The notes beneath the pieces were generated by a model. It was given only the letters and a program-made list of their open reading frames with translations, had not been told where the DNA came from and searched no databases. The position numbers and the translations under genes are program-made. Shown here in pieces: positions 4,196 to 39,034 of a stretch of 44,551 nucleotides of DNA; the first letter of the stretch is position 1, and each line of letters opens with the position of its first letter. This DNA is from Escherichia phage phiWAO78-1: sequence record MW331437.1. One strand, written 5' to 3'.

Positions 4196-4228
4196 TGAAT
4201 AGTACCCTATTATATTGGGGTCTGCAAA
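4196..4228 (-). promoter_or_regulatory. Class-1 conserved promoter-like element, copy A (TTGCAG-N17-TACTAT with AATAG-N4-CTATT dyad)
   Basis: 33-bp element shared with copies at 6082, 15681, 37611, 39002; about 35 nt upstream of the minus-strand ATG at 4164. Confidence 0.6.
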
Positions 4229-4271
4229 TATTATTTTTATGCGTTACACTGGCGATACCACAGGAGGGCAT

Positions 4272-5315
4272 ATGAGCTTACTTACATCCCTAATCAGCCA
4301 CCAGATATGGCTGCAACGCACCGCATCCGGCGAAGTGAAAGACCTTGCACCATTTCTTCAGGAAATGCGGGACGAAATCAAACGGCAGGTCCTGTTATTC
4401 GGTGACGACGGGCGAAGCACTGCGCGACTGAATAAACTGTTACGCGACCTTGAAGAAGCACTGGCAGGACTTACCGGTGACTGGCAAACAAAGCTGACAG
4501 AAGACCTTAAGGAACTGGCGGCATATGAAGCAGAGTGGAACGTAAAAACGCTAACGGCTAGCGTTAACGCGGAATTTGTTACACCTACCGCCGAACAGGT
4601 GTGGGCCGCTGCCGAGTTTCAACCGCTCTCATTGAGCGACAAGCCTGTCGATTTCACTAAGTTGATGTCCGGTTGGGGTGAAGCCGAAGTCGCTCGCCTT
4701 GTAACAGGCGTTAAGATGGGTTTCGTACAAGGTCAGACGACACGGCAGATTGTTAAGAATGTCGTAGGCGCGGGCGGGCTGGCTGACATCTCCGAGCGAA
4801 ACGCCGCTACAGTAATACGTACTGCGCTATCGCACGTGTCCAACGAAGCCCGCAACGAGACGTACAGGCAAAACGACGACATCATCGAGAAGTACGAATG
4901 GGTGTCAACGCTGGACAGTCGTACCAGTACGATTTGCAGAGCCAGAGACGGAATGACGTGGGAAATTGGTATGGGGCCGATGCCCCCCGCCCATCCGAAC
5001 TGTCGATCGTGCACAGCCCCGGTAATTAGCTCGGAGTTCGACTTCCTCGATAAAGGCGCGAAACGTGCAGCTAAGGGTGCGGAAGGTGGTACCCAGGTGA
5101 GCGCGGACACCGCCTATTATGAGTTCCTTAAACAACAACCGGCATGGTTTCAGGACCAGGCACTAGGGCCGGTTCGCGGTAAGATTTTCCGCAACAGCGG
5201 TATATCGCCGGAAGAGTTTCGCGTAATATCTGTAGATGGTTTCGGGAATCCGCTCACGCTTAAGCAGATGGCGGAACTCGATAAACGTGTCGCTGATTAT
5301 CTGAAAGGGGAATAA
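4272..5315 (+). CDS. Head morphogenesis protein (phage Mu F / SPP1 gp7-like minor head protein)
   Basis: Region TLDSRTSTICRARDG...PPAHPNCRSCT resembles the conserved C-terminal signature of this family; position after portal; start at ATG 4272 with GGAGGG SD (ORF open from 4215). Confidence 0.7.
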   Translation: MSLLTSLISHQIWLQRTASGEVKDLAPFLQEMRDEIKRQVLLFGDDGRSTARLNKLLRDLEEALAGLTGDWQTKLTEDLKELAAYEAEWNVKTLTASVNAEFVTPTAEQVWAAAEFQPLSLSDKPVDFTKLMSGWGEAEVARLVTGVKMGFVQGQTTRQIVKNVVGAGGLADISERNAATVIRTALSHVSNEARNETYRQNDDIIEKYEWVSTLDSRTSTICRARDGMTWEIGMGPMPPAHPNCRSCTAPVISSEFDFLDKGAKRAAKGAEGGTQVSADTAYYEFLKQQPAWFQDQALGPVRGKIFRNSGISPEEFRVISVDGFGNPLTLKQMAELDKRVADYLKGE

Positions 5316-5776
5316 TGATGGGCTTTTTCAAAGTAACCGATGTACCGTCGCGTCGTGTTGTCCAGTACGCCCGCGTGTCTGGCTCCGGTGAGAACGTTGT
5401 GTTTATTGAAGATGAAAGTGTACTTGGTACACCGGTAGACGATATGCCGTTTGCGGATAAGACCGGTATCGCGCTACCAGCGGCTGGTATGCTTTATGAG
5501 ATTCCGTATCTGGCTGATGCTGGCGACGTGTACTTCTCTGTGCAACCGAAAGACACTGAACTGGCTGACGGCAGCGCAACCATCACTGTCGAAGTTAAGG
5601 CGGGCAAAGCGCCATACGCGCTTACCTGGTACAAAGACGGCAAGGAAGTGGTAAACGCCCCGGAAGAGGCTTTGTCTCTGACGGTTAATGTAGTCGGTGA
5701 ATACTTCGTTAAAGTTACTGATGCTGATGGCGTAGAGGCAGTTAGCAAAGCGGCGAAGGTCACTAAACCGGAATAA
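5315..5776 (+). CDS. Ig-like domain-containing structural protein (putative)
   Basis: C-terminal motif YALTWYKDGKEV...GEYFVKVTD resembles immunoglobulin-like domains; start overlaps stop of upstream gene (TAATGATG). Confidence 0.45.
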   Translation: MMGFFKVTDVPSRRVVQYARVSGSGENVVFIEDESVLGTPVDDMPFADKTGIALPAAGMLYEIPYLADAGDVYFSVQPKDTELADGSATITVEVKAGKAPYALTWYKDGKEVVNAPEEALSLTVNVVGEYFVKVTDADGVEAVSKAAKVTKPE

Positions 5777-5777
5777 A

Positions 5778-5805
5778 CTGAGGCCCCGAAAGGGGCCTCA
5801 GTTTT
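5778..5805. terminator. Bidirectional rho-independent terminator (CTGAGGCCCC-GAAA-GGGGCCTCAG)
   Basis: 10-bp perfect GC-rich stem with T-runs on both strands, between convergent genes ending at 5776 and 5804. Confidence 0.75.
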
Positions 5806-6055
5806 AATACCCAGTCTCTTGGGTTAAGTTAATCTCTTTATTCCAGACGTTTCGGTCATACTTTTCACGAATCTGGCGCATACTTCTGCCGACCGCGGCG
5901 GATAGAGACGTATCCCCATCTTCTTGCGCGTCCAATTGAATCCGCCGAAGCCCAATATACGCCGAAATATCGCCGCGTAATTCGGCCTGTTCATACTCTT
6001 TTTTAAGAAAAGAACCAAGGTCCTGTACACGATGTTTTGCTGGTTTCGTAATCAT
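5804..6055 (-). CDS. Hypothetical protein (accessory cassette B)
   Basis: 83 aa ORF; ATG 6055 with GAGGAGAG SD about 25 nt downstream of conserved promoter element B. Confidence 0.45.
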   Translation of the reverse strand: MITKPAKHRVQDLGSFLKKEYEQAELRGDISAYIGLRRIQLDAQEDGDTSLSAAVGRSMRQIREKYDRNVWNKEINLTQETGY

Positions 6056-6081
6056 TTCTTCTCTCCTCTTGTTGGTGTGAA

Positions 6082-6114
6082 TGAATAGTACCCTATTATA
6101 TTGGGGTGTGCAAA
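6082..6114 (-). promoter_or_regulatory. Class-1 conserved promoter-like element, copy B
   Basis: TTTGCACACCCCAATATAATAGGGTACTATTCA on the minus strand; the best match to the family consensus. Confidence 0.6.
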
Positions 6115-6179
6115 CTATTTGTTTACGTATTCCAGTTATTCAACTGATTTGTAAATGATGGAATAAACTATTCGAATAG

Positions 6180-6208
6180 TTGACTTTTCACTAAAAATGT
6201 GCTAAGCT
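6180..6208 (+). promoter_or_regulatory. Candidate sigma70 promoter (TTGACT-N17-TAAGCT) preceded by palindrome CTATTCGAATAG
   Basis: Good -35 with 17-nt spacing and a weak -10; palindrome 6168-6179 abuts the -35. Confidence 0.3.
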
Positions 6209-6214
6209 CCACCT

Positions 6215-6412
6215 GAGCTTGTGAAGTATGAACAAGCGACCGCGGCGCGGGCAGGTAACGGAGCGGGACGTAAGTCCTGAGTGTAGTTACGCTGACGCGT
6301 TCGGAAGGGCCGTACTCTATTGCTTGTGTAAAAAGTAACTGGTTTACTGAGATTACGCCGTTTCTATGTTTAAATGATAAGGCCTAGCGCCCCGCTTTAC
6401 GGCGGGGCTTTA
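6215..6412 (+). ncRNA. Candidate small non-coding RNA or leader transcript (about 200 nt)
   Basis: Promoter-like element at 6180-6208 and intrinsic terminator at 6389-6415 bracket a region with no ORF of 60 aa or more (only a 36-codon basic ORF from 6228 lacking a clear SD). Confidence 0.25.
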
Positions 6413-6415
6413 CTT
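6389..6415 (+). terminator. Rho-independent terminator (GCCCCGC-loop-GCGGGGC + TTTACTT)
   Basis: 7-bp GC stem followed by T-rich tract, 18 nt upstream of the spanin start. Confidence 0.6.
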
Positions 6416-6432
6416 ATCGAGAAAGGAGAAAC

Positions 6433-6819
6433 ATGAATCTTAAAGCAACTGTCGTAGCGGGGGCGTGTTTCATCATCCTGGCTTACGCACACGGCCTCTA
6501 CCAGTATCGCATCGGCTGGAATGAAGGCCGGGCGAATCTCGTTTCGCAGCAACAGCAGAAAGCACAGGCTGAGTTAGCGAAGAAAACACAACGGCAGCAG
6601 CAGGACGAATCGAAGGCCGCCGCCGCTGACAACGAAGGCAAGACGAAATCAGAGGTAATTACCCGTGAAGTCGTTAAGTACATTAAAACGCCTGGCCGCA
6701 GCGTGTGCACTTTTGACCCTGAGCGCGTGCGGCTCAAGTCCCGCGCCGTCGCAAACGCCAATTCCATCCCCGGATACGACGATGATGCAGCCGCCGTGCA
6801 AACTGGCACCGCCAAGTAG
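6433..6819 (+). CDS. i-spanin (Rz-like inner-membrane spanin component)
   Basis: N-terminal transmembrane segment VVAGACFIILAYA followed by Q/K/A-rich coiled-coil-like region; a lipoprotein ORF overlaps in the +1 frame. Confidence 0.6.
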   Translation: MNLKATVVAGACFIILAYAHGLYQYRIGWNEGRANLVSQQQQKAQAELAKKTQRQQQDESKAAAADNEGKTKSEVITREVVKYIKTPGRSVCTFDPERVRLKSRAVANANSIPGYDDDAAAVQTGTAK

Positions 6820-6928
6820 CGACGCTGACGAGGATTTAGCTATCGACGTTCAGAATGCCGAATGTGCACGGCAACTGAGACTGAAAGTGTTCATGTTGCA
6901 GGATTACGTGAGGAATATTCTGGAATAG
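6665..6928 (+). CDS. o-spanin (Rz1-like outer-membrane lipoprotein), overlapping the i-spanin gene in another frame
   Basis: Lipoprotein signal MKSLSTLKRLAAACALLTLSAC with lipobox LSAC; Pro-rich mature part; GTG start with GAGGT SD 8 nt upstream; begins inside 6433-6819 and extends past it. Confidence 0.6.
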   Translation: MKSLSTLKRLAAACALLTLSACGSSPAPSQTPIPSPDTTMMQPPCKLAPPSSDADEDLAIDVQNAECARQLRLKVFMLQDYVRNILE

Positions 6929-7010
6929 TTGCCTTGCATGTTGGAATAATTTATTCTTGACATGTAAATCCGGGCGGCCCGGGTTCCAACGTCCAGGGGA
7001 CATACTGACT

Positions 7011-7712
7011 ATGAATCGTTTTTTACGTTATCCGTTCCAGGAAGAAGCTGGAGCAGAAGATAAAGCTGGCGGCGGTGACGCGCCGAAAATGTTCACCGCT
7101 GAAGAAGTTCAGGCGCTGATTGAGAAAGAAGTCGCCGGGCTTAAGGCTAATCAGGAAGCGTTACTTGCGGAGAAGAAAGAAGCCGCTCGTAAAGCAAAAG
7201 AGGCCGAAGAAGAACGGCAGCGTGCCCATCAGGAGGCGTTAAAAGCCGCTGGTAAGATGGACGAGTTCGAAAAAACGATTCGTAGCCAGTATGACCCGGT
7301 GTTAGCCGAGAAAGACGGTCGCATCTCCAAAATGGCAGAGCGTATCCTCGGCAGCGAACGTAAGGCGGTGTTAGGCTCTTTCGCGGGCGACTTTATCACC
7401 CCGGAAGCAGTAGACATTCTTGCTCCGTTCGTTAAAACTGAGTTCGAAGGCGATGATGTGGTTACTAAGTTTGTTGGCGCAGACGGCAACGTAATCACGA
7501 CTGACCCGGAACAGTTCCGCAAATATCTGCGCGAACACAAAGCGTTTTCGCATTTGATTAAAGCAAATGCAGCTTCCGGCGGCGGGGCTTCCGGTGGCAA
7601 AGGCGGCGGGGCCGCACCAGCGTTTAAAGACATGAGTGAAGCGGAGCGTTTAGCTCTGTATAAATCGAACCCTGCCGAATTTGAACGGCAACTTAAAGCC
7701 CTGAGGAAATAA
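7011..7712 (+). CDS. Scaffolding protein (putative)
   Basis: Charged, Ala/Glu/Lys-rich helical protein with Gly-rich C-terminus immediately upstream of the major capsid gene; start at ATG 7011 (ORF open from 6957). Confidence 0.55.
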   Translation: MNRFLRYPFQEEAGAEDKAGGGDAPKMFTAEEVQALIEKEVAGLKANQEALLAEKKEAARKAKEAEEERQRAHQEALKAAGKMDEFEKTIRSQYDPVLAEKDGRISKMAERILGSERKAVLGSFAGDFITPEAVDILAPFVKTEFEGDDVVTKFVGADGNVITTDPEQFRKYLREHKAFSHLIKANAASGGGASGGKGGGAAPAFKDMSEAERLALYKSNPAEFERQLKALRK

Positions 7713-7714
7713 TA

Positions 7715-8764: not shown

Positions 8765-8780
8765 GGTTAAGATATAATCG

Positions 8781-8808
8781 AGAGGGACTTCGGTCCCTCT
8801 TTTCATTT
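8781..8808 (+). terminator. Rho-independent terminator (AGAGGGAC-TTCG-GTCCCTCT + TTTCATTT)
   Basis: 8-bp stem with tetraloop and T-run directly after the capsid gene. Confidence 0.7.
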
Positions 8809-8823
8809 ACTAAGAGGTAAATT

Positions 8824-9195
8824 ATGGCTAAGACCGGAAAAGGCTTGCCGCGAAGCCTTCAGAATGTCGACTTCGGCGACCTGGATATCAGCGTAGGCTG
8901 GGGAGAAGTAACAGGTAAACCGGCGGTAATCGCCGCGGGGGCGACCCAAGAGGCGGCCCGTACCGCTATTGGTGCAGGTACGTCAAGCCTTGTGATCGGA
9001 ACAACTTCGACTACCGCGATGGCCGGGAATAAGTTCGTTCAGGGCACTGCGGTTACCGACGTCGGCTCGCAGACCGTTACCGGTGAAGAGGCCGCCGCGG
9101 TTGCTACGTCCGCACAGACTGCGGTTAACGCAGTAGGCACTAAACTAAACGAACTTCTGGCGCAGCTTCGTGCCGCTAAAATCATCGCATCCTGA
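8824..9195 (+). CDS. Hypothetical structural protein (possible head decoration/fibre protein)
   Basis: 123 aa Ala/Thr/Gly-rich ORF with AAGAGG SD after the capsid gene. Confidence 0.4.
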   Translation: MAKTGKGLPRSLQNVDFGDLDISVGWGEVTGKPAVIAAGATQEAARTAIGAGTSSLVIGTTSTTAMAGNKFVQGTAVTDVGSQTVTGEEAAAVATSAQTAVNAVGTKLNELLAQLRAAKIIAS

Positions 9196-9206
9196 GGAGA
9201 TTAAAA

Positions 9207-9548: not shown

Positions 9549-9584
9549 TGCAACGGCCCTTCGGGGCCGTAATAAGGAAAGGTC

Positions 9585-12060: not shown

Positions 12061-13229
12061 ATATGGCTACAACTCCTTTTAAGGGCGCGAATACCGCGCA
12101 ATTCTATGTGGCGGAAACTACCCCGGGCGTAACACCTACTAACCCGGTCTGGTCGCCATTGCGTAACACTGGCGGTGTTCCAGCGGTAACCCGCGATGCG
12201 CTGACTTCCAACGAACTCGACGGCAGCCGAGAAACTACATCCATCCGCACCGGTAACAAACAGGTTAGCGGGGAGTACGCCATCGAACTTAGCTCACGTA
12301 GCCAGGATGATTTCCTTGCGGGTGCTATGACTTCTACGTGGCAGGATGGGGTAGAGATTACGGGTGCCGAAATTACGGTCGCCCCAGCAGGTAAAACATT
12401 CACCCGCGCTGCCGGTAGCTTCATTACTGACGGTGTAGAAGTTGGCGACCTGATTGCGTTCACCGACTTAACCGGCGACAACGCAAAACCGTTTATCGTT
12501 ACCGCTGTTTCCGACCTTGTAGTTACGGGGGCGGGCATTCAGCACACGCTGACAGCAGAGACTGTAACCACCGACGCTAAAACTGGCGATAAACTGGAAA
12601 CCGGTAACGCGTGTAAGACGTTCTCCATCCTGACATGGTTCAAAGGCCAGTGCGGCAACCCAGACGCGTACATGTTGACCAAAGGCGTGGAAATCTCCGG
12701 TTTCACCATTGAACAGGCCGTAAACGCGATGGTGACAGGCAGCTTCCCGTTCATCGGTCTAAGTCAGGAAATTCTTTCCGAACCGCCGGCAGGTTCCGAC
12801 TTCTCTCGGGTCACATTCACTGACGAGCCGTTCTCATCTGTAGATGTGTCTGTTTTCGACGGTTCTACGCCGTTGCGTTGCGATACTCTGACCATCACCA
12901 ACGACAACAGCGCATCCGCGCAGTTCGAACTTGGCAACAGTAGCGTTGCGTTCGTGGAACGTGGCCGCGCGGCTAACACCTTCTCCATCTCCGGGAAGCT
13001 GTACGACATGGCGATGATTCAGAAGTTTATCGACGAGCAGCAGGTAGAGATTAACTCTATTCTGGCGGGGGTAAACGGGGCTATGTCTTTCAGTTTGAAA
13101 CGTGCAGAGCTTACGGCGGTTACACCAGAGATTGGCGGACCTGAGTCAATCACTCAGTCCATTGAAGGCCAGGCTACTGGCAACCAGTACCAGTCGTCTA
13201 TTGTCATCCAGCGTATCACCTACGCATAA
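12057..13229 (+). CDS. Major tail protein (putative)
   Basis: 390 aa Thr/Gly/Ala-rich ORF, last gene before a bidirectional terminator and upstream of the chaperone/tape-measure genes. Confidence 0.55.
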   Translation: MNMATTPFKGANTAQFYVAETTPGVTPTNPVWSPLRNTGGVPAVTRDALTSNELDGSRETTSIRTGNKQVSGEYAIELSSRSQDDFLAGAMTSTWQDGVEITGAEITVAPAGKTFTRAAGSFITDGVEVGDLIAFTDLTGDNAKPFIVTAVSDLVVTGAGIQHTLTAETVTTDAKTGDKLETGNACKTFSILTWFKGQCGNPDAYMLTKGVEISGFTIEQAVNAMVTGSFPFIGLSQEILSEPPAGSDFSRVTFTDEPFSSVDVSVFDGSTPLRCDTLTITNDNSASAQFELGNSSVAFVERGRAANTFSISGKLYDMAMIQKFIDEQQVEINSILAGVNGAMSFSLKRAELTAVTPEIGGPESITQSIEGQATGNQYQSSIVIQRITYA

Positions 13230-13233
13230 AACT

Positions 13234-13260
13234 AAGGCCCCTTTTGGGGCCTTTCTTCTT
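13234..13260. terminator. Bidirectional rho-independent terminator (AAGGCCCC-TTTT-GGGGCCTT)
   Basis: 8-bp stem with T-tracts on both strands between convergent genes ending at 13229 and 13259. Confidence 0.7.
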
Positions 13261-13813
13261 ACAAACCTAATTTTAAAGCAATGTCTATAACGTTCGATTT
13301 AACGTCACCCGGTATGATATATGTGTCGCAATCTTTTACACCATCAACATCATACAAGTAACCACGGCTATCCCCGTCAAACGTATAGCCGTCTCGGTGC
13401 AAGCGAACAATTCGCACTTCATGCCCAGCGGCGACGATAGGAGCCACTTCACTGGCGAACCCACCGTCGGACACTACAAAAACTTCGTCGCCGTCGGGCA
13501 AGTTTTCAGCAAGATACTTACCGAAATAATCATCGCCGAATACCGGTTTAATGAATTGTTCAGAGATAGCAATCATGAATTGACGGCGAGACAAACCATT
13601 AAGGAATCCTTCTGGCTTTTCTTTCCGCGCCCGGTCGTCGTAGCCGTCGAGAAACTCGTGGTAAGCATCCGGGCCTAACGCTGCCAGAGCGATATTGAAC
13701 ATTGGATTCTTGAAACTGGTAGTTCCTTTCGCAAAGCCCATTTCTACCAGTGCCATAGCAAGTGTGTCTTTCCCGCAACCCGCAGGGCCATTAAGAATAA
13801 TTACATTAGCCAT
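13259..13813 (-). CDS. P-loop nucleotide kinase, deoxynucleoside-monophosphate-kinase-like
   Basis: N-terminal Walker A LNGPAGCGKDT at residue 7; size and GKDT loop resemble phage dNMP kinases (T4 gp1 type). Confidence 0.55.
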   Translation of the reverse strand: MANVIILNGPAGCGKDTLAMALVEMGFAKGTTSFKNPMFNIALAALGPDAYHEFLDGYDDRARKEKPEGFLNGLSRRQFMIAISEQFIKPVFGDDYFGKYLAENLPDGDEVFVVSDGGFASEVAPIVAAGHEVRIVRLHRDGYTFDGDSRGYLYDVDGVKDCDTYIIPGDVKSNVIDIALKLGL

Positions 13814-14298
13814 TATTTATCGCTCCCATGTGATTTTAAGCGTGTAGAGTTCCCGTTACAGTCGTATTCAGTAACCGCGTGCGTCGTGATTCCTAAGCCA
13901 CGGAAATGCTTAATCACCGCTGGCGAGTCGTCGAATGCACACAAGATTCTTTCCAGTCCGATAGCGCGCAACACCTCTTCTTTAATTACGATGTCTTTTC
14001 TGTTGTCGTGTTTGCTACGCATGATTAACTGATAAAATTCGACGCGGTGGCGCTGCAGCCACATTCTGGTTTCTTTTTCTGCATCATCACTGCGACCGGT
14101 TAAAATAATAACGGCGTATCGCCGATTAAGGGCGTTACATAGTTCGATATTATCTCTAATTGGCTCATCGTCTTTGCACGCCATGTTAAATGGCCTCCAA
14201 GCCCATGTTTCGCCGTAGTTATCTTTTGGCAGCAGGTGTAAACGATGTGTACCATCTGCTAATGTCCCGTCTAAATCGAAAATTACAATATCTTTCAT
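13813..14298 (-). CDS. HAD-superfamily phosphatase/hydrolase
   Basis: N-terminal motif I IFDLDGTLADG (DxDGT nucleophile motif) typical of HAD phosphatases. Confidence 0.6.
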   Translation of the reverse strand: MKDIVIFDLDGTLADGTHRLHLLPKDNYGETWAWRPFNMACKDDEPIRDNIELCNALNRRYAVIILTGRSDDAEKETRMWLQRHRVEFYQLIMRSKHDNRKDIVIKEEVLRAIGLERILCAFDDSPAVIKHFRGLGITTHAVTEYDCNGNSTRLKSHGSDK

Positions 14299-15317
14299 CC
14301 CAGCATCTCCGGTGAAATAGTTAAACGCGCAACCTCGCCATATTTGGCGCTATAAGTAATTACATTTGCGCTACGGCCCGACATCCATCCGCCGCGGGAG
14401 GCGTAGGCGTCTTTAGCCGCTAAGGTGCGGTGTTGCTCAACAATCATGTTACGGCTTTCTACAATCTTCTGATGGTGCAGGTGACCTACGTGTGCGTAGC
14501 TGTAGACGCTCTCGCCGAACGCTTTGCGGAACTTGGCAATCATAACTGGTTCGATAGCGTCGAATCGCGCCTTGTGTCCGTGGGTAAAGAACAGCGTCGT
14601 TTTGCCGTGCTGCACCATCTTGTAAACATCCGGCGACGTATCGACGAACACACGCGGCTCATTGTCGTACAGCGTACTGAACATCTCAGCCAACCAAATC
14701 ATACCCGATTCGTCGTGGTTCCCTTGCACGATAAGCAGTCGGACGTTTTTATGTTTAACGAGCGCCATATCAACAACACGGCGTACCATACGAATCATGT
14801 AGCGGACAAGTTTCTGATAACGGGTGTCGGCGTCAAGAGCGTGACCGCTTGCAGGTGTAACGGCAACCAGACTATCGAAGTGCGCGAAGTCGCCTAGCAG
14901 GTTAATAACTCCGGTCCCAGCGTCCGGCGCTTTCTGAAACGCCTCGTCGAACCATCGGGAGAACAGGCCCTCCGCGATTTTCATATCCCAGTCGTCGCCG
15001 CTCTCGTCGGCCCAGGCCAGCATACCGAGATGGAAATCAGACACAGTGTAAAGATTGAGTAGTTTATCGTCGCGTTTGGCGCGAATGGTTTTAACAGGTG
15101 CAACGGGGGTAATCTCTGACTTCATGCCTTCAATTACGGCTTTCATCAACTCGACCTGACGTTCGGCGTCGGTTTCTGTCTTAACCCATTGCAACTTAGT
15201 ATTGCCGAGTTCGTCCACCAGAGACGACGTCCCCTTAATCTTGTAGCCGTCCGGGACAAGGTGACTAACGTCGCGACCGTGACCTACGCCTTTCTTGGCC
15301 AGCTCGCTTTCGGACAC
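14295..15317 (-). CDS. Calcineurin-like metallophosphoesterase
   Basis: Ordered motifs D-x-H (VSDFHLG), GD (LLGDFAHFD), GNH[DE] (VQGNHDE), FTHGH and GHLHH; GTG start; roughly 80-aa N-terminal extension before the first motif. Confidence 0.7.
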   Translation of the reverse strand: MSESELAKKGVGHGRDVSHLVPDGYKIKGTSSLVDELGNTKLQWVKTETDAERQVELMKAVIEGMKSEITPVAPVKTIRAKRDDKLLNLYTVSDFHLGMLAWADESGDDWDMKIAEGLFSRWFDEAFQKAPDAGTGVINLLGDFAHFDSLVAVTPASGHALDADTRYQKLVRYMIRMVRRVVDMALVKHKNVRLLIVQGNHDESGMIWLAEMFSTLYDNEPRVFVDTSPDVYKMVQHGKTTLFFTHGHKARFDAIEPVMIAKFRKAFGESVYSYAHVGHLHHQKIVESRNMIVEQHRTLAAKDAYASRGGWMSGRSANVITYSAKYGEVARLTISPEMLG

Positions 15318-15461: not shown

Positions 15462-15653
15462 TCACTTCTCGTTAACATTCGAGTTGCATGCCCAGATTAA
15501 AATAAAGACCCACGGCAGCAGAATCCAACCAAGAAACAGATTGGCCATGAATATCGCCAACTTCGCTTTATGGTTGCGGAAATACGCAACCAGGAAAGGT
15601 GCGAAATAAGCGAGCAGCGCAAATAGAATTAGGGAAACCGGTAAACTTGACAT
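15462..15653 (-). CDS. Superinfection-immunity-like small membrane protein (Imm family-like)
   Basis: 63 aa, two hydrophobic segments; motif YFRNHKAKLAIFMANLFLGWILLPW resembles the superinfection immunity protein family; first gene behind promoter element C. Confidence 0.55.
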   Translation of the reverse strand: MSSLPVSLILFALLAYFAPFLVAYFRNHKAKLAIFMANLFLGWILLPWVFILIWACNSNVNEK

Positions 15654-15680: not shown

Positions 15681-15713
15681 TGAATAGTACCCTATTATAT
15701 TGGGGCGCGCAAG
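15681..15713 (-). promoter_or_regulatory. Class-1 conserved promoter-like element, copy C
   Basis: CTTGCGCGCCCCAATATAATAGGGTACTATTCA on the minus strand, about 30 nt upstream of ATG 15653. Confidence 0.6.
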
Positions 15714-24833: not shown

Positions 24834-24841
24834 ATAAAACT

Positions 24842-24867
24842 AAGGCCCCTTTCGGGGCCTTTTCTCT
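24842..24867. terminator. Bidirectional rho-independent terminator (AAGGCCCC-TTTC-GGGGCCTT)
   Basis: 8-bp stem plus T-run between the convergent late and replication modules. Confidence 0.7.
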
Positions 24868-27838: not shown

Positions 27839-28138
27839 TTAACTATAATAGTTCGCTATTAGGTCGTCAACTTGTTTAAACGATCCGACGACAAAAACAT
27901 TTGCGCCACGTTTACGCATACGCTCATGTTCTCGCAGCTGGTGCGGGTCAGGCTTCGTGTTTTCGTCTTTCTTAACCTCGACGAACCAGATGATGCCGCC
28001 GGGGAGGATTACTAGCAGGTCAGGAGCGCCGGAGCGCCCCTCGAAGGAAAGTTTACGAACGAGGCCACCAATGGCCTCGAATCGCTCTTTTGCGTATTTC
28101 TGTACGCGCCCCTCTTTAGTCATGAGCGCAGAACCCAT
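27839..28138 (-). CDS. VRR-NUC domain nuclease
   Basis: 99 aa with PD-(D/E)XK-type core (APDLLVILPGG...FVEVKKDEN...HQ) characteristic of VRR-NUC proteins. Confidence 0.65.
   Translation of the reverse strand: MGSALMTKEGRVQKYAKERFEAIGGLVRKLSFEGRSGAPDLLVILPGGIIWFVEVKKDENTKPDPHQLREHERMRKRGANVFVVGSFKQVDDLIANYYS
27842..27870 (-). promoter_or_regulatory. Class-2 promoter H: TTGACG-N17-TATAGT with AATAG-N4-CTATT dyad in the spacer
   Basis: Near-consensus sigma70 hexamers at optimal spacing, read on the minus strand; about 30 nt upstream of ATG 27808. Confidence 0.6.
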
Positions 28139-30847: not shown

Positions 30848-30863
30848 TATTTTCGACCCTTAG

Positions 30864-30887
30864 TAAAAAGGCCCAATGAAGGGCCTT
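30864..30887 (-). terminator. Rho-independent terminator on the minus strand (AAGGCCC-TTCATT-GGGCCTT + TTT)
   Basis: Stem-loop about 20 nt downstream of the minus-strand gene ending at 30907. Confidence 0.55.
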
Positions 30888-30906
30888 AGTTAAATTGATT
30901 CAGATA

Positions 30907-31533: not shown

Positions 31534-31591
31534 CTTGATTTCTCGCTTTTAGGTTTCGTCTACTCCGGGAGCTGCCCGGCCAGTGATTATA

Positions 31592-31620
31592 AATATAATA
31601 GCTAACTATTCAGGTGTCAA
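31592..31620 (-). promoter_or_regulatory. Class-2 promoter F: TTGACA-N17-TATATT with AATAG-N4-CTATT dyad in the spacer
   Basis: Consensus -35 and near-consensus -10 at 17-nt spacing on the minus strand upstream of 30907-31533. Confidence 0.6.
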
Positions 31621-33553: not shown

Positions 33554-33573
33554 AATTACGACCCTCAGTTAAA

Positions 33574-33589: not shown

Positions 33590-33596
33590 CGGATAG

Positions 33597-34118
33597 TTAT
33601 TCTTCTTCGAAATACTTGTTCTTGATTGCTGTCAGGCGTTCCAGATATTCAGCCAGGTCTTCGTCTTTAATCGCGGCAATCTTCATCTTCTTACCGGTGA
33701 ACTCTTCCAGCAGTTCATCGGAATCATCACACGCGGCGTCGCTCGGACCTTCGTTAATCGCGTCGTCGATAGCCTGAATCTGGTCACGCAGAGACTTATA
33801 GTCTACTTCTTCTTTCTCTTCTTCCGGCTCTGGAGCAGGCTCCTCTACTTTAGCTTTACGCGGCTTGCGTTTCGGCTTCTCTTCTTCTGCCGGTTTAGTG
33901 TCAACGATGTCTTCGCCCTCGACTGGGAGTTCTTTCGCTTTCTCGACTTCTTCAAGTGCTTTAGCCAGTTCTTTTTTAACTGTTTCTACCCCCGTGACCG
34001 CGACGTCAACGGTTAATTCACCTACTGATTTGCCGTTTTGCGGTTTCACGCTATTCGCAGCAATCAGTTCATGCGCAACTACGAAACGTTCCAGTAATAC
34101 TAAGAATTTCTCTAACAT
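33597..34118 (-). CDS. Highly acidic early protein (hypothetical; possible DNA mimic)
   Basis: 173 aa, very Glu/Asp-rich with one basic patch; first gene downstream of strong promoter G. Confidence 0.45.
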   Translation of the reverse strand: MLEKFLVLLERFVVAHELIAANSVKPQNGKSVGELTVDVAVTGVETVKKELAKALEEVEKAKELPVEGEDIVDTKPAEEEKPKRKPRKAKVEEPAPEPEEEKEEVDYKSLRDQIQAIDDAINEGPSDAACDDSDELLEEFTGKKMKIAAIKDEDLAEYLERLTAIKNKYFEEE

Positions 34119-34149
34119 TTGTTTCTCTCCTCTCGTTTGGTATGGGTTA

Positions 34150-34179
34150 ACTATAATAGCTAACTATTCAGGATGTCAA
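34150..34179 (-). promoter_or_regulatory. Class-2 promoter G: TTGACA-N18-TATAGT with AATAG-N4-CTATT dyad in the spacer
   Basis: Consensus -35 and near-consensus -10 on the minus strand; divergent from the XRE-type regulator gene. Confidence 0.6.
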
Positions 34180-34243
34180 CGGGCTTTTCTAAAATAATTA
34201 ATATGGTACTATTCACATATCAACTGACTAAGGAGTAACTGAC

Positions 34244-34459
34244 ATGCAACCATCTGAACTAGGCATCCGTGTAGAGCAACGCCGTAAAGAACTCGGCATC
34301 TCCCAGCGCCGTCTGGCAGTCCTGACCGGCGTTTCCCAGGGCGCAATTAACCAGCTGGCACTTGGGGTAACTCAGGACGTCCGCCCGGCGACGCTGTTTA
34401 AACTGGCGGAAGTGCTGCAAGTAGACGCGAAGTGGCTGGCGCTAGGTGAAGGGGCTTAA
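34244..34459 (+). CDS. XRE-family helix-turn-helix transcriptional regulator (Cro/CI-like)
   Basis: 71 aa; ISQRRLAVLTGVSQGAINQL is a classic XRE-type HTH; AAGGAG SD; divergently transcribed from the early operon. Confidence 0.7.
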   Translation: MQPSELGIRVEQRRKELGISQRRLAVLTGVSQGAINQLALGVTQDVRPATLFKLAEVLQVDAKWLALGEGA

Positions 34460-34476
34460 TGCCCCTTTCTTTTTAC

Positions 34477-36717
34477 CTATTCCAAATCATCCTCTGTCAC
34501 CACCAGCATTTCATTCGGTTCGTATATTGTCTTTGGCCTCAATCTGTCGCCCATCTTTTCAGGTATCCGGTATGTGCCTGGTATAACTTCACCGTTAACA
34601 TCGCACCCGAGCATCAACTCACCGTCTTTCAGCATCTTCTCAAGATGGTGGTTGGTGATGGCGTGGTCCCCCGAGTTCGCCACTATCTGCCGTTGGGTAA
34701 AACCTCGTCCGGTGTCGTCGGACTGTTGCAGGTCTTCCAGCGCGGCGAGTATTGATTCCTTACGCCCTTCATCCTTCCCGCGTTTTACAGCATTCTTTAC
34801 GTTTTCTTTACCTTCTTTAGTTAACCCTTCTTCCCGCTCCTTCTCCTCGTCAGTTTTGAACGGCTCGAAGCCCCACGGCATCAGCACAAGCGCCTTGTGC
34901 GGCTCAGGCAGATCGAGGTTTACGATTGTGCCGTATTCCTCTGTGCAGCCGAGGAACTCAACAGCGCGATACTCTTTCGGCGGCGGAGCCTCACGGAACT
35001 GTACCGACTCCAGCACCATGCCAACCGTTTTCTGTTGAGGCCCGTGCTTAAATTTAGAGTGGTATACGTTTATCTGGCGGTCGGTCGCACGCTCAATTGT
35101 TAGCTCCACGTCGACACCCGCATACAGTGCCCCACTACCTCGGGCTTTCTTTCCACCCTTCGGAGTATGGTGGACAACACCCACCGCGGCTTTGGTTGCA
35201 TCACGCACTTCTTTCAGGATGGCAATGACTTTACCCATGCCGATTGCCGTCGATGAACTGTTCTCGTCGAACTTATCAATCGTCAGGGCCAGCGTCTGGT
35301 TAAGGGTGTCGAAGGCAACCATGCCAATTGGCTCGTCGCCTGCGGTTTCGCGCATTAGCTTAATAAGGCTTTTCAGTTTTCCAACTTCACCCATGTCGAT
35401 AACATGTACATAATCTTTACCTTCCTCGCCGTATTTAGCCGCGAGTGCGTCGATACGGGTGCGTGTAGCTGCGCCCCCCTCACCGTCAATATAGAAATGG
35501 TGGCAACGCTGGGTGTCGGCCCCGGCAAACCGGTATCCGGCAGCACTAAGGTACATCATACCCAGCGTATAGAATGATTTGTACGTGCCAGATTCCCCGA
35601 CGATGCCCCAGATACAATCCGATGGCATGTACCCTTCAACGACGAAATCAGCCTTTACCGGTTCTGGTAGCTCGTCCTCCTCTGGGTCATCGTCGTCTTC
35701 CAGGTCGTCGAGGCTGCATGAAACAGATTCACGCGCACCCCAGCCGATAGCCTCTGCGACTTCACTGAACGGCAGGCCAGTCGCATCGCACGCATATTTC
35801 CACACCTCTTTCGGCGACATACCTTCGGTTGCCATAATGTCGGTGTCGTGAATCATGGTTACGTTCGGCGCTTCATATCCTTCACGCGGGAAACACAGCA
35901 GGAAGTCGTCCGGACGCGGCGTCGGGTCGCTGTAGTTTTCTGCATGCTCTGGTGTGGCTGGCATCTTAAGGCCGCGTGGTGTCATAACACCGCCGTACTC
36001 GAACGCCAGTGCCTCAAACGCATCAGTAAACGCAGTGCGCAGTTCTTCCGGTATCTGGTAATCCGATGCGCTGCTCACCTCATAATCCGGTACGCCTTCC
36101 AGTAACTCGTCCGGGTCAATCAGGTCGTTGCGGCGCGACCAGATAACGGTAGAGCCTACCGGTGGCAGGTACATCGGTTGTGACAGAGTGAACCCGCTGC
36201 GGTCGGCGCCCATGCCTTTGAAGAAGTGCTCCAGCAATCCATGACGAACACGAATGATGTCACCGCCCTCAACCGTTCGGGCCAGCGGCATGACGACGCG
36301 AAAGCGCGGGGCTTCGTCTGTGTGTGATGCCGTGGTATAGAGGCACATCGCCCGCCGGCTGCGCTTAACCAGGCGCACAGCTTCCTGATACTCTTCCAGG
36401 GTTGCACTGTCAAAGTCCAGGTACGCCAGCGACGATTTGCTTACAGACGCGTCGCAGCGATAGAAAAAGCCTTTACGCGCTTGCTTAAAGTCACCTGTTT
36501 CCGGGTCTTTTACGGTGCTGTGCGTAGAGTCGCACGCGGCGGTGATGTAGCCAGGCGCGGTCTTCGAGTTAATCCCGTCACGGACGGCATCGAGCGGCTG
36601 GATTAAATCTTTCAGGTCGTCCAGTGTTGCCGTGTGTGTCGTTCTGACGTTTATATCCTTTTTCTCCGCCCTCGCGTTGCGACGGGACCACGAGTAGGAT
36701 AAAATCACATCGGACAT
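34477..36717 (-). CDS. DNA primase/helicase (RecA-like P-loop ATPase with N-terminal primase-like region)
   Basis: 746 aa; Walker A GIVGESGTYKS and downstream RecA-fold features in the central domain; size and context of phage primase-helicases. Confidence 0.7.
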   Translation of the reverse strand: MSDVILSYSWSRRNARAEKKDINVRTTHTATLDDLKDLIQPLDAVRDGINSKTAPGYITAACDSTHSTVKDPETGDFKQARKGFFYRCDASVSKSSLAYLDFDSATLEEYQEAVRLVKRSRRAMCLYTTASHTDEAPRFRVVMPLARTVEGGDIIRVRHGLLEHFFKGMGADRSGFTLSQPMYLPPVGSTVIWSRRNDLIDPDELLEGVPDYEVSSASDYQIPEELRTAFTDAFEALAFEYGGVMTPRGLKMPATPEHAENYSDPTPRPDDFLLCFPREGYEAPNVTMIHDTDIMATEGMSPKEVWKYACDATGLPFSEVAEAIGWGARESVSCSLDDLEDDDDPEEDELPEPVKADFVVEGYMPSDCIWGIVGESGTYKSFYTLGMMYLSAAGYRFAGADTQRCHHFYIDGEGGAATRTRIDALAAKYGEEGKDYVHVIDMGEVGKLKSLIKLMRETAGDEPIGMVAFDTLNQTLALTIDKFDENSSSTAIGMGKVIAILKEVRDATKAAVGVVHHTPKGGKKARGSGALYAGVDVELTIERATDRQINVYHSKFKHGPQQKTVGMVLESVQFREAPPPKEYRAVEFLGCTEEYGTIVNLDLPEPHKALVLMPWGFEPFKTDEEKEREEGLTKEGKENVKNAVKRGKDEGRKESILAALEDLQQSDDTGRGFTQRQIVANSGDHAITNHHLEKMLKDGELMLGCDVNGEVIPGTYRIPEKMGDRLRPKTIYEPNEMLVVTEDDLE

Positions 36718-36775
36718 ATTGTATATTCCTTCAGCAAGTAATTTAGCCTCGGCGCTCTAACGCTGGGGCTTTCTT

Positions 36776-37009
36776 TTATTCCAGGTCTTCTAAAGTAGCG
36801 GCCATTCCGCGAACTTCAGCAACAGCGCTATATCTCCCGCCAACATTTTTCACGACACCGGATTTAACCAGTACCTTTAACGACCCTTCAATAATGGCTG
36901 AACTATAGTACTTAAAATAACTACGGCGCAAGTCGATAACGCTGCATGACCCTTTTTTACGTGTTAATGAAACGACTGCCGTAAACACTCGTGATTGAAA
37001 CTCAGTCAT
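36776..37009 (-). CDS. Hypothetical protein
   Basis: 77 aa ORF overlapping the upstream HTH gene. Confidence 0.4.
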   Translation of the reverse strand: MTEFQSRVFTAVVSLTRKKGSCSVIDLRRSYFKYYSSAIIEGSLKVLVKSGVVKNVGGRYSAVAEVRGMAATLEDLE

Positions 37010-37176
37010 TTCACGTTCTCCTTAATCCACGCTTCCACTTTCTCTCGGTCAAACGTACCAGGCTGGCGGCGACCCATAATGCGGATACAACAATCCGGGA
37101 ACTTCCCACTCTTTAACCAGTTATTCAGCGTGCGACGAGTAACCCCGATACGCTCGGCTACCTCATTCTGCGTCAT
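37006..37176 (-). CDS. AlpA/excisionase-like HTH DNA-binding protein
   Basis: MTQNEVAERIGVTRRTLNNWLKSGKFP matches the AlpA-type HTH pattern; start at ATG 37176 with GAGGG SD (ORF open from 37209). Confidence 0.5.
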   Translation of the reverse strand: MTQNEVAERIGVTRRTLNNWLKSGKFPDCCIRIMGRRQPGTFDREKVEAWIKENVK

Positions 37177-37208
37177 TCTCAAACCCTCATTATCAGTTAA
37201 CGGAGGCA

Positions 37209-37237
37209 AGTATACATTGCGAATAGTGGGAAATCAA
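37209..37237 (-). promoter_or_regulatory. Candidate sigma70 promoter TTGATT-N17-TATACT for the AlpA-like gene
   Basis: Hexamers at optimal spacing on the minus strand; spacer contains a GAATAG half-site. Confidence 0.4.
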
Positions 37238-37517
37238 ACATAATTGCACCTATTGACATTATGAAAATCTTCGTTTAAGGTGCTTCTATATCTTAGTTAC
37301 TTTGATTCTTGTTCACCTTGTAAAACCCGCCGAAAACGAGCGCTCAACGCGAAGTGTTAGGCGGCAGTTTACTGAACATGAGAATTATCGTAACTTTCCT
37401 TCCTAAGTATCTCCGGTTGCCCTGGGCAAGCTCTATTCTCATCGGCAGCATACCTCTTAAGTATCTGATTTTCTTAATGTGCCGTAGATTCGCAACCGTA
37501 AAAATGTAACGATTATC

Positions 37518-37541
37518 GGGCAGGCTTAATGCCTGCCCTTT
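37518..37541 (+). terminator. Terminator-like hairpin (GGGCAGGC-TTAAT-GCCTGCCC + TTT)
   Basis: 8-bp perfect stem in a roughly 450-bp region without convincing ORFs. Confidence 0.35.
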
Positions 37542-37610
37542 AGTTACCAAGTAATAAGAATAAAGGCACGACCCTCCCTAAAGAATCACAACGGCAACGT
37601 AACTATTCTC

Positions 37611-37643
37611 TTGCACACCCCAACATAATAGGATACTATTCAC
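37611..37643 (+). promoter_or_regulatory. Class-1 conserved promoter-like element, copy D
   Basis: TTGCACACCCCAACATAATAGGATACTATTCAC on the plus strand about 30 nt upstream of the first gene of the rightward small-ORF array. Confidence 0.6.
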
Positions 37644-37673
37644 TTATCGGAACGATACAGAGGAGTGAGGGTT

Positions 37674-37865
37674 ATGTTTAAGAAGGGTCAGTTGGTTAAA
37701 TGCGCCGACGGTAAACACGGTGTGATTGAATTAAAATCTGCTTTATTTCCGGGAGAGTACGTAGTTACTGTGCAAAAGGTGAGAGGAGTAAATTCGGTGG
37801 TATACGTAGCGGAAGAGAATTTAAAACTAATCGGCAACAATTTTAAATTCAAAGGGGAGAAGTGA
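37674..37865 (+). CDS. Hypothetical small protein
   Basis: ATG 37674 with GAGGAGTGAGGG SD (ORF open from GTG 37665). Confidence 0.4.
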   Translation: MFKKGQLVKCADGKHGVIELKSALFPGEYVVTVQKVRGVNSVVYVAEENLKLIGNNFKFKGEK

Positions 37866-38104
37866 TGCAAATCATAATTACAGATAACACAGTTTCCTAC
37901 GAAAAAGATGACGACGATACTTTGGAGAGCATAGGCGTAAATATCGGTGATGTTTTCGATGTCCTTGGTATCGTATCAGGCAGCTGGTGGATTAAGGTCG
38001 GTCGCTACAAAGTTCCGGTAAGCAAGGCAGAAGCGAAAATATTCTCAACGGCATCGAATCATGATGCTCGTGCCGACGACTCTGAGGGAGGTTGCCGTGA
38101 ATAA
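37862..38104 (+). CDS. Hypothetical small protein
   Basis: 80 aa; ATGA overlap with upstream gene. Confidence 0.4.
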   Translation: MMQIIITDNTVSYEKDDDDTLESIGVNIGDVFDVLGIVSGSWWIKVGRYKVPVSKAEAKIFSTASNHDARADDSEGGCRE

Positions 38105-38164
38105 TTACCTGTTTATTTTAATTGTCAGCGCCGTTTGTGTGGTGCACGCGTTGTGGGGGCTGGT

Positions 38165-38356
38165 ATGAGAATTCGTATAACCAAGATAAATGGCTTTCTA
38201 CCACTGCCTTACGGTGACTATCCTCTTTACCACTTTGGGGTATGCGTTGGGCAGGAGTTCGATACTATCGGCGAAAACGAGTATGGCTTTGTCGTAGAAC
38301 ATGACGGAGAGCCGCTATTCATTAGACGCAGTGAATGTGAAGTTCTGGAGGACTAA
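38165..38356 (+). CDS. Hypothetical small protein
   Basis: ATG 38165 (ORF open from 38135). Confidence 0.35.
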   Translation: MRIRITKINGFLPLPYGDYPLYHFGVCVGQEFDTIGENEYGFVVEHDGEPLFIRRSECEVLED

Positions 38357-38359
38357 GTT

Positions 38360-38503
38360 ATGAGAGAAGCATTTGAACGGTGGGCTGTCGTCGAGGGTCT
38401 GCCGGTTAACAAGGGTTCGAAGAAAGAGTACCTGAACGTTAAGACGCGTCTCGCGTGGCGGGCGTGGAAAGCTGGTGTTCGAACTGCGATGAGTAAGAGG
38501 TGA
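38360..38503 (+). CDS. Hypothetical small basic protein (47 aa)
   Basis: GGAGGA SD before ATG 38360; below ORF-track cutoff. Confidence 0.3.
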   Translation: MREAFERWAVVEGLPVNKGSKKEYLNVKTRLAWRAWKAGVRTAMSKR

Positions 38504-38506
38504 GAT

Positions 38507-38701
38507 GTGTGTGAGTGGGTTAAGTGTAGTGAGCGGATGCCAGATGACTTTGAAGATGTACTGGTTTCAGATGGGGGTAACGTTGAGGTGATGTGGTGGG
38601 ATTGCGATGGCTTCTGGGATTGTTGGGCACCGCGTAACTCAAATATCAGTAGTGACGATGTGACTCACTGGATGTCGTTACCTGAGCCGCCGGAAGTGTG
38701 A
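38507..38701 (+). CDS. Small Trp/Cys-rich protein, possibly DUF551-like
   Basis: MPDDFEDVLV...VTHWMSLPEPP pattern resembles DUF551 phage proteins (from memory); GTG start. Confidence 0.35.
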   Translation: MCEWVKCSERMPDDFEDVLVSDGGNVEVMWWDCDGFWDCWAPRNSNISSDDVTHWMSLPEPPEV

Positions 38702-38825
38702 TGTTCAATAGTTTGTGATTTTACTGAGTGACTTACGCTGCTACACAGCAGCGTATCATTTTTCTCATTTTTGTTCTATTTCACCAAACGCAACCATCGA
38801 AGCGACTATTGCAGGAGATGCAACA

Positions 38826-38996
38826 ATGAAACTGAATGACATCGTAACCTGGACCGGTAGAAACGGAGAAAAGCGATTCGGGCTTATTGTTGCATCAAAC
38901 GGCAACAAGTACCGTGTTATGCGATGGCGTCAGTGGGCACGACGCCAGAGGTACTACTGGATTCGCAGTGAACGTTTATCTTTAAAACACCAATAA
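38826..38996 (+). CDS. Hypothetical small protein (56 aa)
   Basis: ATG 38826 with AGGAGA SD (ORF open from 38715). Confidence 0.35.
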   Translation: MKLNDIVTWTGRNGEKRFGLIVASNGNKYRVMRWRQWARRQRYYWIRSERLSLKHQ

Positions 38997-39001
38997 AATT
39001 T

Positions 39002-39034
39002 CTTGCCACTGGGATAGAATAGGCTACTATTCAT
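39002..39034 (+). promoter_or_regulatory. Class-1 conserved promoter-like element, copy E (diverged)
   Basis: CTTGCCACTGGGATAGAATAGGCTACTATTCAT keeps TTGCC, the AATAG-N4-CTATT dyad and TACTATTCA; 27 nt upstream of ATG 39062. Confidence 0.45.

Follow-up and report, generated by a model that had tools for sequence, protein, structure and literature searches.

The stretch of DNA analysed here (hereafter the window) is the 44,551-nucleotide sequence record MW331437.1 of Escherichia phage phiWAO78-1, and corresponds to a complete 44.5 kb Kagunavirus-type genome, relatives of this Guernseyvirinae siphovirus including the Escherichia phages ST20, JSSK01 and K1G (identity to the window ~88-90%). Its rightward and leftward gene blocks are set out in Table 1; in addition, three short minus-strand cassettes are embedded in the structural operon. 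The element of interest is a promoter-like sequence of 33 bp repeated across this genome, for which an earlier note, made from the sequence alone, had claimed five copies, a sigma70-like architecture, a spacer conserved almost base for base and, by implication, an additional sequence-specific reader. As that note had it, the element heads all three opposite-strand cassettes and the rightward array of small open reading frames (ORFs); the rightward units that it heads number two in all.

Matching was conducted with a 32-nt consensus (TTGCACACCCCAATATAATAGGGTACTATTCA), the chance level being taken from 100 dinucleotide shuffles. Four copies (c1 to c4) lay within two mismatches of this consensus, the mean number of matches in the shuffled sequences being 0, and a diverged fifth copy (c5) was also recovered: the repetition is thus real, and the coordinates previously assigned to it were accurate to within 1 nt. 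A 22-nt core (CCCCAATATAATAGGGTACTAT) was exact in all three minus-strand copies (c1-c3). The fifth copy reads cTTGCCA-CTGGGATAGAATAGGC-TACTAT-TCA with a spacer of 16 nt, and as its orthologues in other phages combine TTGCAC with a 17-nt spacer, the window has undergone a 1-nt deletion here. The earlier note had missed a sixth class-1 member (c6) at 34200-34213 (+), as well as the presence of the core in minus-strand promoters at 27847, 31597 and 34155.

The proposed sigma70-like spacing, and the start of a gene 20-35 nt downstream, were both borne out. The hexamers are TTGCRC-N17-TACTAT in c1-c4, with N16 in c5, matching the consensus at 3/6 (-35) and 4/6 (-10) positions and keeping T1, A2 and T6 of the -10; each copy is oriented towards a gene, the Shine-Dalgarno sequence and ATG of which follow at a distance of 20-35 nt, and hexamer identity and spacing are kept in orthologues, including those of Jerseyvirus (TTGCAT-N17-TATTAT, TTGCTT-N17-TACTAT). 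A TATAAT within the spacer was considered as the true -10 and judged less likely, having no conserved -35 at 17 bp and not being kept in c4, c5 or Jerseyvirus c3. A second dyad in the class-1 spacer, ACCC-N10-GGGT, was rejected, the orthologues of c4 and c5 having GGAT, GGCT or GACT and the CCCC tract being variable.

The conserved run of spacer, TACTAT and trailing TCA proved to be an 18-bp quasi-palindrome, ATAATAG-N4-CTATTCA, with the 14-bp core AATAG-N4-CTATT, enclosing the -10 hexamer. Exact copies of the core numbered eight in the window against ~0.1 expected, and 12 sites were present at <=1 mismatch against 1.06-1.3 expected, a total reached in 0/100 shuffles; an unbiased count ranked the core first among all 5-mer-arm palindromes of the genome. 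All eight exact sites, and three of the four one-mismatch sites (34200, 42092 and 6175), are located in intergenic promoter regions, while the remaining one-mismatch site (21878) lies within a gene and is probably due to chance. Repeat finding located part of the element at 27840-27864, 31590-31614, 34148-34172 and 34199-34221, the first three of which contain minus-strand promoters close to consensus (TTGACA/G-N17/18-TATAGT or TATATT), here termed class 2.

With the dyad written as ATAATAG-N4-CTATTCA, transcription from class-1 promoters is rightwards, their -10 TACTAT consisting of the last two N4 bases plus CTAT, whereas that from class-2 promoters is leftwards, the dyad being situated between -35 and -10. 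In class 1 it spans about -21 to -4 and hence covers the -10 hexamer, which explains the conserved trailing TCA; in class 2 it occupies the spacer, from about -27 to -12. The corresponding dyad centres are at ~-12.5 (class 1), ~-18.5 (class 2) and ~-33.5 (the one-mismatch sites 42092 and 6175, either of which is a possible weak operator), so that the dyad lies over the -10 in six promoters, in the spacer in three and, with one mismatch, over the -35 in two, a canonical -35/-10 pair flanking or overlapping it at every site. The location of the dyad inside the class-2 spacer, and in the opposite orientation, means that contacts with RNA polymerase cannot explain its conservation, while symmetry combined with dual orientation fits a dimeric DNA-binding regulator rather than a recognition element for a polymerase or sigma factor. 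In many relatives (e.g. locus L111, position 36765), a further exact core follows tandem GGTGTAACAGG repeats just upstream of the terminator ACGCTGCTACACAGCAGCGT, distant from any obvious promoter; its counterpart in the window (38690-38760) is degenerate (AATAGTTTGTGATT, 2 mismatches). Separately, GAATA-N3-TATTC sites were noticed in distant loci, part of them within coding sequence.

Table 1. Location of gene blocks, promoters, putative operators and candidate regulator genes in the window
Feature	Position	Strand	Remarks
Structural genes	~92-24833	+	genome layout
Replication and recombination genes	24866 to ~37176	-	genome layout
Rightward small ORFs, lysis genes, NinH-like region	37665-44462	+	genome layout
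c1 promoter-operator	4196..4227	-	1 mismatch to consensus; -35 TTGCAG 4227-4222, -10 TACTAT 4204-4199, 14-bp core 4198-4211
c1 cargo	3970-4164 and 3719-3958	-	small antisense cassette; position fixed in orthologues, cargo varies
c2 promoter-operator	6082..6113	-	exact consensus (0 mismatches); core 6084-6097; drives antisense gene 5804-6055
c3 promoter-operator	15681..15712	-	2 mismatches; operator core 15683-15696
c3 cargo	15462-15653, 14295-15317, 13813-14298, 13259-13813	-	Imm superinfection-immunity (15462-15653), phosphoesterase (14295-15317), PNKP-like HAD (13813-14298) and 13259-13813
c4 promoter-operator	37611..37642	+	2 mismatches; core 37627-37640; heads rightward small-ORF array from 37665
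c5 promoter-operator	39003..39033	+	TTGCCA, 16-nt spacer, TACTAT; operator core 39018-39031
c5 unit	39062 to ~41978	+	includes endolysin 41346-41831
c6 class-1-like promoter of Cro-like gene	34196..34215	+	poor -35
c6 extended -10 TGgTACTAT	TG 34204-34205, -10 34207-34212	+	
c6 weakened operator AATATGGTACTATT	34200-34213	+	upstream of helix-turn-helix gene 34244-34459
Class-2 promoter TTGACA-N18-TATAGT	34150..34179	-	core 34155-34168 in spacer; drives 33597-34118 and downstream genes
Class-2 promoter TTGACA-N17-TATATT	31592..31620	-	core 31597-31610; drives single-stranded DNA (ssDNA)-binding protein, then DNA polymerase gene
Class-2 promoter TTGACG-N17-TATAGT	27842..27870	-	operator core 27847-27860 in spacer
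Unit of promoter 27842..27870	27808 down to 24866	-	methyltransferase, helicase, primase-like genes
Promoter TTGACT-N17-TATATT	42092..42125	+	one-mismatch palindrome ACTAGTTGACTATT over -35 (Jerseyvirus orthologue of palindrome, AATAGTTGACTAGT)
Promoter TTGACT-N17-TAAGCT	6175..6208	+	one-mismatch palindrome AATAGTTGACTTTT over -35
Cro-like 71-amino-acid HTH_3 protein gene	34244..34459	+	favoured operator reader
HTH_17 56-amino-acid protein gene	37006..37176	-	alternative reader; first gene of leftward operon
HTH_17 promoter TTGATT-N17-TATACT	37237-37209	-	half-site only (ACTATTC)

The motif itself is already listed in PHIRE-based papers on Kagunavirus and Jerseyvirus genomes. For phage fBC-Eco01, seven sequences, PP1-PP7 (TGAATAGTACCCTATTATAT and variants, consensus tgAATAGTa-ccTATTat-T), were labelled phage RNA polymerase promoters (PMC9825357), and these are the orthologues of c1, c2, c3, the promoter at 27847, c6, c4 and c5; the same motif was reported for SGP-C as TAATAGTACCCTATTATGTT (PMC8790156), and seven PHIRE promoters were given for Golestan (PMC7203180). 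Each of these reports lists repeats, without the dyad, its dual orientation, the sigma70 hexamers or the link to a Cro-like protein that is considered below. Recognition by a phage-encoded RNA polymerase or sigma factor, or through sigma appropriation, would agree with the occurrence of a repeated phage-specific sequence upstream of genes, and with the label 'Phage RNAP promoter' (PMC9825357) and its counterparts in the other PHIRE-based accounts, but gene content goes most of the way to refuting it: neither Pfam and PHROG scans of the window nor the annotations of relatives revealed a gene for an RNA polymerase, a sigma factor or a MotA/AsiA-like protein, and the ORFs of >700 amino acids (aa) were all accounted for (tape measure, tail tip, tailspike, DNA polymerase A and helicase-primase). 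Moreover, a promoter for a phage polymerase would be asymmetric and fixed in orientation, whereas the core is palindromic and used both ways round with a canonical -35/-10 pair at every site, and a MotA/AsiA-type box would be expected near -30 in place of the -35, whereas the conserved block is centred at ~-12.5 or ~-18.5 and a -35-like hexamer is retained. An explanation of this kind is therefore extremely improbable, and the attribution made for fBC-Eco01, to an enzyme which these phages do not encode, is a mislabel. With regard to the additional reader envisaged by the earlier note, a phage-encoded regulator is the best explanation, while the polymerase, sigma factor or appropriator also suggested there found no support.

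The constraint acting on the element was established with a comparison set of 37 IMG/VR loci at the 34244 gene, 69 at the major capsid gene and seven GenBank genomes, in which orthologous promoters were located by BLAST with 154-nt windows (no motif conditioning) and aligned with MAFFT, giving 16-38 distinct sequences per site. An ungapped orthologue comparison, upset by indels, was superseded by these alignments. The search of related genomes that the earlier note had recommended confirmed that the motif is conserved in relatives: in >200 site instances from >100 related loci, the operator arms were invariant or nearly so at every site, and the TG/CA flank was also conserved. By way of contrast, the N4 of class 2 was variable (CTAA, CGAA, TGAA, CAAA, TTCG, CTCG, TCCG and others), as were the 3 nt that separate the -35 from the dyad; the upstream spacer half of c5 varied freely (CTAAG, CTGGG, CACAG, CGTAG and others), and in c1-c3 orthologues variation was seen in the last two bases of the -35 and in the CCCC tract (ACACC, GCACC, ACTCC, CCCTG). 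It follows that the identity of the whole 33 bp is partly peculiar to this genome, the claim of a spacer conserved almost base for base holding good for the operator half and failing for the upstream half, CCCC included. As judged from the alignments, constraint is limited to the hexamers and the operator half, together with a CC(A/G)A block that c1-c4 possess.

These same alignments bear on the proposition that there is no extra reader at all, and that paralogous sigma70 promoters have spread with moron-like cassettes, their identity being the outcome of recent duplication or recombination plus selection for promoter strength. The absence of constraint on the CCCC tract across relatives accords with such an origin, as do the differing cargoes of c1-c3 at a fixed promoter position and the 5'-untranslated-region (5'-UTR) modules common to the copies, which suggest modular exchange. 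However, it would not account for arms that stay invariant while N4 and the neighbouring spacer bases vary, nor for a core that appears in the opposite orientation in the spacers of unrelated class-2 promoters and persists between genera, nor for the situation at c6, where a conserved G-to-T change, the sole mismatch of that site, gives up one arm position and thereby produces an extended -10, AATATGGTACTATT being unchanged in 38 distinct orthologues. Duplication without a reader is consequently regarded as decidedly unlikely.

Equivalent comparisons were made with Jerseyvirus, the helicase-primase of which is only 64% identical to that of the window, and with the TS6-like clade. Orthologous Jerseyvirus promoters keep the core as a perfect 16-bp TAATAG-N4-CTATTA, so that Kagunavirus and Jerseyvirus operators differ only in the outer flank (CTATTCA versus CTATTA(T/A/C)), and in the Jerseyvirus Imm promoter (TTGCAT-N17-TATTAT) the -10 is displaced by 3 nt relative to the dyad, indicating that dyad and hexamers are separable. 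No AATAG-N4-CTATT site was present at <=1 mismatch in two TS6-like genomes, TS6 itself (L041) and vB_St_LL_sp9 (L113). The palindrome of the TS6-like phages is TATTA-N6-TAATA (three exact sites versus 0.03 expected; four to five one-mismatch sites versus ~1.2-1.3 expected), the half-site of which differs from TAATAG by one base, and its promoter positions are those of the core, namely over the -10, in the spacer, or over the -35 (TTGACT/TTGCAT). At the level of sequence, this would be the pattern expected of an operator and a phage-encoded reader changing together. Reading of the palindrome by a host DNA-binding protein, as might be supposed from a core common to phages of Escherichia, Salmonella and Raoultella, the regulators of which are similar, is by comparison difficult to reconcile with these data: TS6-like and Jerseyvirus phages both infect Salmonella, yet have different half-sites in the same promoter positions, which argues against a host factor. 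No host site is known to fit, the spacing of the ARG box and of OxyR sites being different, and a host reader is considered very improbable.

Three helix-turn-helix (HTH) proteins were detectable in the window (HTH_3, HTH_17 and NinH-like), and PHROG and Pfam scans of the early small ORFs for further regulators returned only results of unknown function. The HTH_3 protein (Pfam HTH_3, 1e-12) is a Cro-like product of 71 aa, the best PDB matches of which were 434 Cro (E=7e-6, same length) and 434 repressor, with P22 C2 also matched; these three proteins bind as dimers to 14-18-bp dyads, the centre of which is weakly contacted. Two of the putative operators (34155 and 34200) are situated <90 bp upstream of its gene. 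No Kagunavirus variant down to 75% identity departs from its HTH (GVSQGAINQLALG), the variation being at the termini, and a search of 5.8 billion proteins found no variant with an altered recognition helix down to that same level, so that nature offers no specificity swap. The Cro-like protein persists in Jerseyvirus (48% identity) and in the TS6 clade (39%), and just one other HTH candidate is likewise kept in all three clades. Operator and recognition helix are both invariant within Kagunavirus and both changed in the TS6 clade, but between Kagunavirus and Jerseyvirus the helix differs while the 14-bp core does not. The NinH-like protein is 66% conserved in the TS6 clade despite the change of half-site there. 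As a separate observation, the Cro-like protein is a mosaic (homologues P0009-P0016): in variants as distant as 75% identity, blocks differ at the N-terminus and in the C-terminal helix, residues 20-47 with the HTH being near-unchanged.

The same anatomy of sigma70 promoter plus operator could conceivably be served by a different protein, the 56-aa HTH_17 product, which as the first product of an operator-less leftward promoter would then act as an early regulator of both class 1 and class 2. A half-site, ACTATTC, is all that the HTH_17 promoter carries, and the distribution of the protein follows that of the core: its 442 records, all >=73% identical, come exclusively from Kagunavirus and Jerseyvirus, it is 89% identical between these two genera with the identical core, and it is absent from the TS6-like clade, in which the AATAG-N4-CTATT core is absent too. 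However, the predicted recognition helix exists as four Kagunavirus alleles (TRRTLNNW, TRQTINNW, SPMTLNRW and STMTLNRW) as against invariant operators, phage LM02P1 having the SPM allele yet normal operators, and members of the excisionase/MerR-like clan that are as small as this usually recognise direct repeats or act as monomers. In the TS6-like Guernseyvirinae, furthermore, the architecture of promoter-embedded palindromes is kept with neither the HTH_17 gene nor the gene for its 77-aa neighbour, and the Cro-like gene heads the helicase operon. On balance the Cro-like protein is favoured, HTH_17 being an unlikely reader. The 77-aa protein itself (36776-37009, minus strand), encoded between the HTH_17 and helicase-primase genes, belongs to PHROG 5169 (unknown function), has no Pfam match, is 66% identical in Jerseyvirus and displays by eye a winged-helix-like pattern; it may be another DNA-binding protein.

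A loading site for an AlpA/Q-like antiterminator, read by HTH_17, was also considered and rejected, HTH_17 being too small at 56 aa. Pseudomonas aeruginosa AlpA is a multi-helix protein with DNA contacts up to residue 142 that binds a 6-bp asymmetric element as a monomer (PMC9371919). The elements of Q/AlpA antitermination resemble the present sites in that a factor-binding element is located inside a promoter spacer (PMC9371919), but those systems require both a large multi-helix protein, which threads the RNA exit channel, and a sigma-dependent pause site, and a single monomer binds their asymmetric 6-mer, the ABE (PMC9371919). Here, the candidates are of 56-71 aa, the site is a dyad, and there is no conserved -10-like downstream pause element.

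When these comparisons are taken together, there is a little better than an even chance that each class-1 element combines a host sigma70 promoter with an embedded 18-bp operator that is read by the phage Cro-like repressor. The sequence data show a promoter-like anatomy, a symmetrical dyad, its placement and enrichment, a pattern of constraint across genomes and the existence of a Cro-like gene; that the dyad is bound, by which protein, and in what sense and when it regulates, is what we infer. Host RNA polymerase would fire all class-1 and class-2 promoters at infection, after which the Cro-like dimer would accumulate, occupy the operators and occlude RNA polymerase. Expression of the antisense cassettes would thereby be turned down, as would that of both rightward units and of the replication operons, and the protein would regulate its own synthesis via the weaker c6 site. 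Silencing of c1-c3 would, in addition, remove transcription converging on the structural operon. That the reader should repress is suggested by the dyad centres, all of which are at occluding positions.

A number of observations weigh against this scheme. The operator is perfect at c5, the unit of which runs through the holin and endolysin genes, and the presence of lysis genes there is an ill fit with a global repressor or with early shutoff. The recognition helix of the Cro-like protein is SQGAINQ in Kagunavirus and SQSLITH in Jerseyvirus, yet the 14-bp core is the same in both, and other small proteins of unknown function, such as the 77-aa product of 36776-37009, could be the reader. The CC(A/G)A block and the 5'-UTR modules that c1-c4 have in common are not explained by the operator; c1-c3 contain a perfect TATAAT inside the spacer, the TACTAT -10 and the start being predictions; and no transcriptome or start-site data for Guernseyvirinae were found in the literature. 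The suggestion of the earlier note that the element defines one temporal class is itself doubtful, because the operator is also present in three promoters of the replication module and the unit from 39003 spans holin and endolysin.

The three antisense cassettes occupy fixed positions relative to the capsid gene, with a cargo that differs, or a cassette that is absent, among phages: JSSK01 (L001, 6044-7961) has neither the c1 nor the c2 cassette, and Snoke (L003, 5757-6278) has a DNA polymerase III sliding-clamp-like gene at c2. In the window the cargo consists of the Imm, phosphoesterase and PNKP-like HAD genes and of small genes with no assigned function. As they are also bounded by hairpin terminators (3392-3411, 5772-5805 and 13226-13259), c1-c3 behave like morons with one operator-bearing promoter. 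They resemble morons in being short cassettes between structural genes with their own promoter, terminator and variable cargo, and differ from them in being antisense to the structural operon of a lytic phage and in having one common operator-bearing promoter as opposed to unrelated promoters.

Near-identical bidirectional GGCCCC/GGGGCC hairpin terminators were observed at 5772-5805, 13226-13259, 24834-24867 and 30861-30896, where they bound cassettes and modules. The last of these is positioned between the genes for the ssDNA-binding protein and DNA polymerase, inside one transcription unit, so that expression of the polymerase requires read-through or partial termination. Two non-coding regions were also noted, the Rfam scan of the window returning nothing at the gathering threshold. 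The first, at 6175-6415 (+), is an ORF-free stretch of ~240 bp situated between the promoter TTGACT-N17-TAAGCT (TGc before the -10) and an intrinsic terminator (6389-6408). Its identity in 28/31 other distinct loci, Jerseyvirus-type loci included, is 96-99%, which is far above the genome average; it has a predicted minimum free energy of -71.8 kcal/mol (z = -1.86) and matches no Rfam family. It is a candidate conserved phage non-coding RNA of ~200 nt, the genes downstream of it being those for spanin, scaffold and capsid. The second, an ORF-poor stretch of ~370 bp at 37240-37610, separates the divergent promoters at 37237 (leftward) and 37611 (rightward), contains a strong hairpin plus T-run at 37518-37538, is recognisable in parts in Jerseyvirus (L002, 27560-27650), and could be an origin or a non-coding transcript.

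By analogy, the closest mechanistic system would be the Cro-operator circuit of lambdoid phages (434 Cro at OR/OL, P22 C2). Common to both are an equally small, phage-encoded HTH_3 protein of the Cro/CI family; 14-18-bp dyads in which the arms are conserved and the central 4 bp variable, being under weaker constraint; overlap of these with core promoter elements at several phage promoters; sites adjoining the gene of the regulator, which imply autoregulation; and a half-site that differs between related phage clades in the manner of lambdoid immunity specificities. The differences are that annotation makes the present family lytic, neither a CI partner nor an integrase having been seen in relatives and no lysogeny genes being reported for the phages of PMC7203180 or PMC9825357; that single putative operators are dispersed over at least nine (~10) promoters, unlike the tandem triplets of OR/OL; and that three operator positions are used, over the -10, in the spacer and possibly over the -35. 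The mechanism proposed is accordingly one of a familiar sort and reveals no new kind.

A bolder version of this scheme, offered tentatively and rather improbable, would make the 71-aa Cro-like protein the master timer of the whole infection in a subfamily with no lysogeny module. On this version, some ten single operators would lie over weak -10s, inside the spacers of strong promoters and, in weakened form, over the -35s of late and non-coding RNA promoters; the promoter-operator would be a portable driver with which antisense morons are swapped in, to be silenced before late read-through; and the half-site changes from clade to clade (TAATAG versus TATTAG) would give these lytic phages something akin to immunity types.

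Phages of Kagunavirus and Jerseyvirus are widely isolated and have been proposed for therapy or biocontrol of E. coli and Salmonella. Reading their repeated motif as a sigma70 promoter with a palindromic operator corrects its annotation, and such a small, portable and repressible promoter module would be of use in phage engineering. For the biology of these phages, the same reading predicts a compact regulon of ~9-11 sites for one 71-aa protein, and would explain how antisense cassettes within a structural operon could be turned off.

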